This document shows, piece by piece, positions 27,504 through 29,677 of a stretch of 64,000 nt of DNA (positions within the stretch are counted from its first letter, which is position 1; each line of letters opens with the position of its first letter). Under the pieces are notes generated by a model, which saw only the letters and a program-made list of their open reading frames with translations, made no database searches and was not told the DNA's origin. The translations under genes and the position numbers were made by a program. This stretch comes from an uncultured Candidatus Peribacteria bacterium. Its GTDB lineage: Bacteria; Patescibacteriota; Gracilibacteria; Peribacterales; Peribacteraceae. Location of the stretch: the NCBI GenBank assembly GCA_964497975.1, contig CAZCFO010000003.1, positions 6,620 to 70,619 of the forward strand. The letters run 5' to 3'.

Positions 27504-29677
27504 AACATCTTCTTGAATTCCCCCTCATCAATCACCGTCACGTTCAACTTCTTCGCATCCTCCAGCTTGCCCCCCGCCTCGTCGCCCGCGAGCACGTAGT
27601 CGGTCTTCTTGCTCACCGCGCCGCTCACGTTTCCGCCGCGGTCCTTGATCATCTGCCGCGCCTGCTCCCGGCTGAGGGTCGGCAGCGTTCCTGTGAGCAC
27701 GAACGTTTTGCCGTCGAAGATCTGCGTCATGCCCGAACCTTCGCTCTGCAGGCAGACGACGCCCGCCTCATCCAGTTTCCGCACGAGTTCATCCGTTGCC
27801 TCATCCTCAACCCATTCCATCAGCGATTCTGCAACCACGCTTCCGATCCCATGCAGCGCGGCAATCGCCTCGGGTCCCAGCTTTTTCAGCGTCGACCGGA
27901 CGTCCGAGGGCTTCACCGCCGTCAGCGTGATCTCGCGCTCTTCGGGCCCGAACAGCGATTCCTGGGTGGTCATCTGCCTCTCCTTCACGGTCAGCTTGCG
28001 GCTCGGCCATGCGATCCTCCGCGCCAGCAGCTCCGCGGTCTCGCGGCCCACGTGCCGGATGCCCAGCGCGAACAGGAACCGCTCGAGCGGCACGCGCTTG
28101 GCCTTCTCGATCGACTGCAGTGCATTCTCCGTCTTCCTCTCCTTGAAGAGCGGCAGCTGCATCAGGTCTTCGGCGCCCAGCGTGAAGATATCCGCGGGAT
28201 CATCAATAAACCCGCCACTGATCATCGCCTCGATGCTTTCCTTGCCGAGGCCCTCGATGTTGAACGCATAGCGCGACACGAAATGCTCGATGCGCTCCTG
28301 CTGCACCGCGCCGCAGCGGGGATTGGGACAGCGATGGGCGACTTCGCCTTCGGCCCGCACGAGCGCCGTTCCGCAGCTGGGGCAGTGCTTGGGATACCGG
28401 AACGGCTTCGCGTCCTTCGGCCGCAGGTTTACCAGCACTTCCATCACTTCGGGAATGATGTCGCCCGCCTTGCGCACGATCACGGTGTCGCCCAGCCGCA
28501 CGTCCAGCCGCGCGATTTCGTCCTCGTTGTGCAGCGTCGCGCGCGTCACCGTCGTCCCCGCCAGTTGCGTGGGGCTCAGGTGCGCCACCGGCGTGATGGC
28601 CCCCGTCCGCCCCACCTGCAGCACGATATCCAGCACCTGCGCCGTCTTCTGCTCTGCGGGGAATTTGTAGGCGCGGGCCCAGCGCGGCGCCTTCGCGGTC
28701 GATCCCAGATCCCGCTGCGTGCGGCGGTCATTCGTTTTCAGCACCACGCCGTCGATATCGAAGGCAAGCGCGTCGCGGTTCTTCTGCGCTTTCTCATAAA
28801 ACGCCCGCACTTCCTTCAAAGATTTCGCGAGCACGAGTCCCGGATGGACGGGAATGCCGATCCGCGTCAGGAATTCCATCAGGCCCTTCTGCGTCGTGAT
28901 GCCGAAGGCGTCGGCGGCCGCGGTATTGAGCGCATAGCAGAGCATCCGCAGGTCCCTCGAGGCCGCGATTTTGGGATCCAGCTGCCGTACTGAGCCCGCC
29001 GCGGCGTTGCGGGGATTCGCGAATTTTTCGTCGTCCTCCAGCTTCGCGTTCGTTTTCTTGAGCGCGTCTTTGGTCATGTACACCTCGCCGGAGATTTCTA
29101 GGAAGCGGGGGGCATCGCCCGCGGGACCCTCGGAGACCGAAAACATCAGCGGAATGCTCTCGATCGTCCGCACGGTGTGTGTCACATCCTCGCCCTCGAT
29201 GCCGTTGCCGCGCGTCACCGCCCGCACGTACCGGTACGTGACCGCGTTGTCATCCTTCGACGGGCTCAGGATGACACGTTCATAGATGAGCGAAATATTC
29301 AGCCCGTCGATCTTCAGCTCGCAGAGGATCTCGAACTCGCGCCTGTCGTCCCCCAAAAAACGCCGCATCTGGTCGATCCAGTCCTCGAGCTCGCTGTCCT
29401 CGAAAATATCGGTGAGCGATTCCTTCGGCGTCAGATGCCGGACCTTCGGCAGGCGGCCGTCGAGCGGGGAGCCCACGCGTTGGGTGGGGGAGTCGGGCGT
29501 GATCAGATCGGGGAACTCGGTTTCGAGCGCGATGAGCTCCTGCTTGAGCGCGTCGCGGATCTCCTCGGGCACGTCGGTGCGGTTTTCGATGAAGTACGCC
29601 GTGTTCAGGCGGAGAATTTCGCTTCGCAGCTTCGTAACCCTCTCCGCCGCCCGTTGCCGATTGAGTGCCGCGCCCAT
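27494..29677 (-). CDS. ligA: NAD-dependent DNA ligase
   Basis: KIDG adenylation motif, [16 protein letters not shown], Zn-finger [24 protein letters not shown], HhH region, C-terminal BRCT ([10 protein letters not shown]). Start at MGAAL (29677). Confidence 0.93.
29249..29275. repeat. palindromic element GTCATCC-TTCGACGGGCTCA-GGATGAC inside the ligA coding sequence
   Basis: On the ligA strand it reads GTC ATC CTG AGC CCG TCG AAG GAT GAC, which is VILSPSKDD, in frame. Confidence 0.75.

Follow-up and report, generated by a model that had tools for sequence, protein, structure and literature searches.

How does a short palindrome that looks like a non-coding repeat come to lie among the codons of an essential gene and leave that gene intact? 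The question is raised by ligA, the gene of the NAD+-dependent DNA ligase, in an uncultured Candidatus Peribacteria bacterium. The gene is carried on a stretch of 64,000 nucleotides of contig CAZCFO010000003.1 (the whole stretch analysed, called here the window), and within its adenylation domain lies a 27-bp palindromic element, GTCATCCTGAGCCCGTCGAAGGATGAC on the minus strand. This element has the pattern GTCATCC-N13-GGATGAC, that is, a perfect 7-bp stem around a 13-nt loop (8 bp when the T/A pair at 29276/29248 is counted), and it is translated as VILSPSKDD, with V135 standing 13 residues past the adenylation lysine K122. The reading that we favour, to which we give roughly seven chances in ten, is that the element is a copy of a probably selfish hairpin repeat, similar to the repetitive extragenic palindromes (REPs) and the Rickettsia palindromic elements (RPEs), and that it is tolerated in a permissive loop of LigA.

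The host gene is complete. Its product, identical to the database protein P0001, aligns with E. coli LigA (2owo) over the full length and in all domains (E = 6e-145), contains the full domain set (PF01653, PF03120, PF03119, PF12826, and PF00533) together with the catalytic motifs, and has its best homologues in Candidatus Peribacteria and Peregrinibacteria, of the Candidate Phyla Radiation (CPR). An original prediction, made from the letters of the window, had placed a perfect 7-bp-stem palindrome read as VILSPSKDD inside ligA, and both the sequence and the intact 727-aa open reading frame (ORF) bear this out. It had also counted 29 residues between the KxDG and TRGxG motifs against a canonical 16; the count is correct, since E. 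coli LigA has 16 (from KLDG to TRGDG) and a HMMER alignment to that protein opens a 13-residue gap exactly at the element. The attribution of these 13 extra residues to the element stands only in part. The spacer is indeed 13 residues longer than in E. coli, but only nine of them are coded by the element, and among 120 Peribacteria homologues the spacer ranges from 20 to 66 residues (median 24.5) and is never 16. Because the Peribacteria spacers are already of 20-25 residues at baseline, about four of the 13 extra residues are a trait of the lineage and nine come from the element.

At the protein level, the element is predicted to encode a beta-hairpin tip, in the hairpin after the KxDG lysine. 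In an AlphaFold2 (AF2) model of residues 1-345 (51 sequences, mean pLDDT 87, pTM 0.83), which matches solved LigA adenylation domains with E values of about 1e-28 to 1e-30, DSSP assigns strands to residues 126-135 and 146-155 and coil to residues 136-145, the block having a pLDDT of about 85. A position on a loop of the LigA structure had been expected beforehand, and the model agrees with it; the tip is presumably solvent-exposed, as judged from the predicted coil. At the level of the nucleic acid, single-strand folding of the intragenic copy gives -8.8 kcal/mol as DNA and -14.5 kcal/mol as RNA (z about -3.9), and three of the six frames of the 27-nt element are free of stop codons. Two further observations belong to this same short region. 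At 29225-29240, 9 nt from the element, the native T-Y-R-Y-V codons form a perfect 16-nt palindrome (CACGTACCGGTACGTG), which is probably a coincidence of codon choice because it is absent from the homologues examined. Antisense to ligA, at 29271-29299 of the plus strand, the ATGACA of the element's 3' half and an AATATT downstream make up a sigma-70-like match, a consensus match only (one found where 0.6 would be expected).

The element has companions in the window. Pattern searches allowing up to three mismatches found, in the 64-kb window, no copies beyond the intragenic one and a second one at the 3' end of ligA, and a looser scan added a third; no match to the pattern appeared in 100 dinucleotide-preserving shuffles of the window, a chance expectation of zero against the three copies observed. 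With the covariance model R1 the three copies score 45-48 bits (47.9 for the intragenic, 45.2 for the second, and 48 for the third), the next best match in the window reaching 16 bits. The second copy is identical to the intragenic one at 25 of 27 positions and has the same stem. It had been noticed in the original prediction as a near-identical copy that gives ligA its last three codons and its stop: the identity holds, and so does the stop, a TGA in the loop of the copy, but the coding share amounts to two codons plus one base (the third base of a Leu codon, then the two final Ser). That this 3' copy lies wholly outside ligA was also considered and rejected, because it overlaps the last codons.

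The third copy, absent from that earlier account, is inverted relative to the other two. In its stem (GTCATGG/CCATGAC) GG/CC replaces CC/GG, a double compensatory change. The copy begins one base past the stop of the convergent gene, and with its flanks (27439-27471) it forms a 10-bp stem. Together, the second and third copies make an inverted doublet that fills the entire 53-nt gap separating the two convergent stops (27440 and 27494), and whose possible folds are two small hairpins or a single long one; its RNA folding energies are -37.7 kcal/mol (z -5.3) and -40.9 kcal/mol (z -6.0). An interpretation of the elements as intrinsic terminators was rejected: a terminator scan of 26300-30300 found no terminator-like site at the elements, such sites lying elsewhere in that interval, and no T-run follows the intragenic copy or the doublet. 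The features are collected in Table 1.

Table 1. Position of the palindromic copies and of the genes that they touch (coordinates of the window)
Feature	Coordinates	Strand	Description
ligA, NAD+-dependent DNA ligase	27494..29677	minus	727 aa; intact frame; K122 (KIDG), TRGNG
Hypervariable beta-hairpin tip of the adenylation domain, hosting the element (predicted)	29237..29278	minus	Codons R134-T147; alignment of 120 homologues, DSSP on AF2 model
Intragenic palindromic copy	29249..29275	minus	Codes for V135-D143; A orientation, with TGAGC..CGAA on the sense strand of ligA
Second copy	27477..27503	minus	A orientation; 25/27 identical to the intragenic copy; GTCATCCTGAGCCTGACGAAGGATGAC
Third copy	27442..27468	plus	Inverted relative to the other two; R1 match
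Inverted doublet (second and third copies), REPIN-like	27438..27507		32-nt arms, 81% complementary
Convergent neighbour gene	26439..27440	plus	ORF of 333 aa with a hydrophobic sequence and no match in Pfam; stop abuts the doublet

The arrangement is reproduced across assemblies, the ligA stretch being identical in contigs of four independent runs of one bioreactor metagenome study. A ligA variant without the insert was searched for in the source metagenomes and none was found; apparent read junctions at ligA, considered as deletions, were rejected, as they correspond to other loci with a doublet. Since other contigs of matching depth from the same samples carry similar doublets, the source genome very likely has further copies beyond the window. 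Within the window, all three copies are at ligA, and in 374 kb of related Peribacteria DNA the R1 model finds a handful more, about one per 45 kb. Some of these are close to ligA as well: the distance is 150 nt on the downstream side in L128/129 and 40 nt on the upstream side in L127, L131 has a copy near the gene too, and in L126 a doublet lies 2 kb downstream. The association of the copies with ligA is only suggestive, because these loci were fetched for containing ligA.

The same loop has been filled in different ways in related ligases, as seen when the loop DNA of about 30 Peribacteria ligA loci was compared. The original prediction had proposed to check by an ortholog alignment whether the insert is lineage-specific; it is, and the closest relatives lack the element. 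The nearest of them, P0002 (81% identical over the whole protein, 83% outside the loop, and sister in a neighbour-joining (NJ) tree), has no element, and its loop, similar in length, consists of (CCAGAAA)x4 (L002, about 1219-1246); this is a heptanucleotide microsatellite inside an essential gene, in which one unit gained or lost would shift the frame. Likewise, P0003 and P0004 have no element and a short loop, LHGKT. On the other hand, a ligA from an independent metagenome (L001, P0010) contains the same 27-mer family at the same codon, followed by its inverted partner (A+B), and the loop reads VILSPSKED-MVRRAHHD. Another gene (L003, P0012; 2742-2900) has the inverted form (B) with a GC-rich palindrome nested in its loop, followed by a 51-nt unit present three times. 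In this locus the tripled unit adds about 34 residues, and the duplication junctions at GGTTCGAG/CGTTCGAG suggest that the triplication arose by slippage. A decayed A+B pair is found in the loop of L160 (P0026), and L164 (P0005) has a copy in reverse orientation (18 of 22 nt matching) that is used in another frame and read HPSTGAGS. The copies or remnants of the window, L001, L003, and L160 begin at the same codon (YE[RH]-V).

Sequences of other origin occupy this loop too. Unrelated palindromes are present in L138, L146, L161, and L163, and a tandem repeat in L162. The palindrome of L138 (about 300-370) is CCCTAACCCAAACCC../GGGTTGGGG.., that of L161 is TGTAGAGACGCA..TGCGTCTCTACA, and in L163 a perfect 13-bp stem is formed by CCGTGGGACAGAG-ATAT-CTCTGTCCCACGG. 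In the NJ tree, the element-bearing LigAs are scattered, each with element-free sisters. The LigA loop is thus a hot spot for inserted repeats in the Peribacteria clade.

Outside this clade, the palindrome belongs to a family with the consensus (T)GTCAYSS-TGAGCYTGTCGAA-SSRTGAC, in which TGAGCYTGTCGAA is the loop. An exact scan with GTCATSSTGAGCNNNNCGAASSATGAC over one genome per species (596 Gb) returned matches in at least 119 stretches of DNA, against about 0.3 matches expected by chance (calculated); the palindrome is therefore, as first proposed, a copy of a repeat and not an ordinary loop. Among the matches listed are Hymenobacter isolates, Ignavibacteria, Eremiobacterota, Acidobacteriota, and Nitrospinota, and also Alpha- and Gammaproteobacteria, Chloroflexota, Spirochaetota, and Patescibacteria; the family, nearly identical in sequence, extends across Proteobacteria, Bacteroidota, Acidobacteriota, Chloroflexota, Patescibacteria, and phages. 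The two free positions of the stem are complementary in 131 of the 133 copies among the matches listed, in a search whose pattern did not require pairing, the variants being CC/GG (54), GC/GC (50), and GG/CC (27). Further stems (GTCACCC, GTCACAC, and GTCACAT) also covary; this second set was pre-filtered for paired stems, and therefore the figure of 131/133 alone is unbiased.

Copies of the family are mostly intergenic and unannotated. The flank profile of 132 copies has a preference for T at -1 (61%) and contains neither a GTAG nor a CGTC tag. A minority of copies are extended by complementary flanks unique to each copy; those of Hymenobacter often end in a T-run and are terminator-like. Copies also occur on plasmids of Moraxella osloensis, Comamonas, Phyllobacterium, and others, with no annotated feature under the matches in the records listed, and on 11 viral contigs, and phages could carry the repeat between hosts. 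In four of these viral contigs (L150 at 1478-3875, L152, L153, and L156) two inverted copies stand exactly 2371 nt apart. The pair in L150 was considered as a transposon and rejected, since the ORFs between the copies read like phage structural genes (tail-like and tape-measure-like). Two other genes host family copies in frame. In a 40%-GC metagenome-assembled genome of Patescibacteria, two GC-rich copies lie inside CarB (L042, 4840-5003), an insert which we take to be about 40 residues compared with E. coli CarB; and in a 35%-GC bacterium one copy lies inside a 750-aa SMC-like ORF (L026, 916-942). Both host genes were recognised on reading their translations, a family search playing no part. 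No name for the family came up when the core DNA sequence and its typical translations were looked for in full texts, and such repeats go unmentioned in the Peribacteria genome paper. Inspection led to the rejection of a ribozyme core (hammerhead-like or other), a tRNA T-arm, a 16S helix, attC, and dif, the conserved nucleotides that each requires appearing to be absent.

Several described systems resemble this element. RPEs were about 150 bp as first described and are specific to Rickettsia (Ogata et al., 2000; PMC10969869, PMC3733652). The likeness consists in a hairpin-forming repeat that lies in frame in conserved essential genes of a small-genome bacterium, preserves the ORF, and adds residues at a tolerated position of the protein (here on the AF2 prediction), with copies also between genes. 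The comparison with Rickettsia made in the original prediction holds as an analogy of this sort, the ORF of an essential gene being preserved. The differences are the size (27 bp and nine residues vs. about 150 bp), the distribution (many phyla vs. Rickettsia only), and the few copies present here; by size and taxon, the ligA element is not a member of the RPE families. With the GTAG and CGTC REPs, stem-loops of 20-40 bp, the ligA element shares its dimensions (27-29 bp, 7-8 bp stem), the occurrence of inverted dimers between convergent ORFs, of which the doublet is a case, the donation of stop codons by the ends of the repeat, and the presence of some copies within genes. In fact, intragenic REPs often lie in replication or repair genes, including that of a DNA ligase in Opitutus terrae (PMC3733652), and REP ends can supply stop codons (Di Nocera, De Gregorio, and Rocco, 2013; PMC3733652). 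The CGTC REPs have no known transposase either, and their loop is of 4-5 nt (PMC3733652). Unlike REPs, the ligA-element family has no unpaired GTAG or CGTC tetranucleotide; its 13-nt apical part is the most conserved while the stem covaries, the loop being of 13 nt vs. 4-5 nt in CGTC REPs; and the same sequence, apparently in low copy number, is found across phyla instead of being species-specific.

Other systems fit less well. REPINs are REP doublets that form hairpins and are mobilised by RAYT (REP-associated tyrosine) transposases of the Y1 HUH type; their populations are specific to a lineage, and a genome usually holds tens to hundreds of them. The doublet at the end of ligA is similar, with two inverted units, a short spacer, and one long hairpin, but the intragenic copy is a singlet, and no RAYT was identified in the eight window ORFs scanned with Pfam. 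MITEs (transposable elements of the miniature inverted-repeat type) have terminal inverted repeats and a direct target-site duplication and measure 50-500 bp, whereas the ligA element has 27 bp and no direct repeat in its flanks. Finally, Rfam at its gathering thresholds recognises in the window a tRNA alone, and a permissive scan adds only spurious microRNA models and a sub-threshold match to RF02901 (AaHKsRNA41, Aggregatibacter small RNA 41). The consensus of RF02901 holds CUGAgCUUGcCGAAGCAU and its inverse, the same core in doublet form; however, the match scores 27.7 bits, where the gathering threshold is 97, and covers model positions 7-96 of 187, the doublet part, and the ligA doublet is not a member of that family.

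The origin of the intragenic copy would be explained as follows. A short repeat of the REP kind, itself non-coding, would have left a copy in the ligA codons for the beta-hairpin tip, whether by element-specific insertion or transposition, by gene conversion, or by template switching from the doublet 1.77 kb away. Such an insertion survives because 27 nt make nine codons, because the frame used has no stop, and because the length of the tip is almost unconstrained in the clade. VILSPSKDD would then most likely be a neutral passenger peptide, and the intragenic hairpin may be regarded as selfish or neutral DNA. The doublet, which supplies the stop of ligA, would probably also act as a hairpin at the end of the transcript, by analogy with REPs. 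To judge from the nested palindromes and from the copies with extended flanks, hairpin tips may attract further hairpins. In-frame insertion of a REP- or RPE-like repeat is of a kind already known; what is new is the lineage and the repeat family.

Several results weigh against a selfish repeat of this type. Its density is low, unlike that of the classic high-copy REPs. No direct repeat is shared by the flanks of the three copies (ACGT|..|AACG, TGTT|..|ACTC, and AGAT|..|ATCA, written 5'|element|3'), that is, no target-site duplication is seen. Pfam detects no transposase in the eight neighbouring window ORFs scanned, and no gene family recurs beside the 119 cross-phylum copies as a candidate for mobilisation. 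The RNA runs that were searched for the region do not hold the sequence. Moreover, the copies of the window and L001 are identical at 26 of 27 positions, in genes whose identity is 72% overall and 56% at the third positions of conserved residues; only nine of the 717 nine-codon windows of this pair are as similar as the element. An old, purely neutral insertion would have decayed. The identity calls for recent recurrent insertions, for homogenised copies, or for selection on the nucleotide sequence.

The last of these possibilities leads to an alternative in which the hairpin is kept in ligA, and in other replication or repair genes, for a function at the level of the nucleic acid, a conserved factor recognising the invariant TGAGCYTGTCGAA core. 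Candidate functions are a site of mRNA binding or processing, a pause of transcription or translation, and a DNA structure sensed at replication that tunes the expression of the ligase. Such a role would account for a core conserved across phyla with covarying stems, and for an element that ranks in the top 1% or so of conserved 27-nt ligA stretches between the window and L001, though placed in the most variable loop. It would also agree with the copies in or beside ligA in several Peribacteria loci (inside the gene in the window, L001, and L003; beside it in L128/129 and L127), with the preference of intragenic REPs for replication and repair genes (PMC3733652), and with the related doublet within the Aggregatibacter family RF02901. 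However, most close orthologues have no element or only decayed copies, so that ligA does not need it, and unrelated sequences fill the same loop; in addition, no T-run follows the intragenic copy or the doublet, and the enrichment at ligA comprises about 10 sites in loci fetched for containing that gene. A functional hairpin is for these reasons improbable.

Another explanation is that an A+B doublet was inserted once, long ago, in the ligA loop of the ancestor of the clade, with no ongoing mobility. Slippage deletions between the GTCAT/ATGAC ends, inversion of the loop, tandem duplication, and decay would have produced the present states, and gene conversion from the doublet 1.77 kb away would have maintained the perfect copy of the window. 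The shared start codon in the window, L001, L003, and L160 is what a single event would leave behind, as are the order of A then B in L001, which is that of the window's 3' doublet, and the identical stems of the window's internal and 3' copies; moreover, a deletion between the repeated GTCAT or ATGAC ends would yield the single-copy states observed. On the other hand, the scattering of element-bearing LigAs among element-free sisters would need many independent losses, 26 of 27 positions are identical despite silent sites that have diverged by about 44%, the copy of L164 has the opposite orientation and another frame, and the family's presence in phages and distant phyla requires that it spread or was created repeatedly. 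We regard one ancient event as quite unlikely. Finally, that there is no element at all, and only a chance palindrome in an ordinary lineage-specific loop or an artefact of assembly, is scarcely credible: all Peribacteria LigA proteins have a long and variable loop, so that extra residues alone prove nothing, but the shuffled sequences, the other loci of the family, the identical contigs of four separate runs, and the same 27-mer at the same codon in the independent metagenome of L001 all contradict it.

The window also contains features that are not related to the ligA element. A low-GC island at 32000-38000 (GC 0.36-0.43 vs. about 0.62 elsewhere) holds ORFs that include an aldehyde-dehydrogenase-like domain and a histidine kinase, along with several that have no Pfam match; Pfam gave no transposase match in this island, which was possibly acquired horizontally. 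Long imperfect palindromes of short tandem motifs (e.g., GAATTACGAATCATGAATTATGAATAC and its complement) are found at 52594-52688, 51516-51595, 11067-11131, 6685-6751, and 59715-59766, and they represent repeat families different from the ligA element; the one at 11067-11131 is closed in all six frames. The sole match of Rfam and ARAGORN in the window is a tRNA-Leu (GAG) gene at 23584-23669 on the minus strand.

A repeat tolerated in a permissive loop, as preferred here, extends to the CPR the phenomenon of selfish palindromes translated within essential genes, of the type described in Rickettsia. It makes the LigA loop a natural permissive site, which is useful for protein engineering and for reading the insertions of CPR proteins. 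The part most worth following up is the conservation of the repeat family across phyla. The cause of its constancy, be it a mobilising enzyme, a factor of the host, or horizontal spread, would bear on how REP-like elements without transposase spread. A bolder proposal, unlikely as we judge it, is that the family is an unnamed cross-phylum structured nucleic-acid module, with a covarying stem and, as invariant core, TGAGCYTGTCGAA, which tandem G-A pairs may close, whose constancy would be held by a recognising or mobilising factor, and which would prefer DNA hairpin tips and replication or repair genes and may influence expression. If this were true, short palindromes would be recurrent in-frame remodellers of essential CPR proteins, as RPEs are in Rickettsia.

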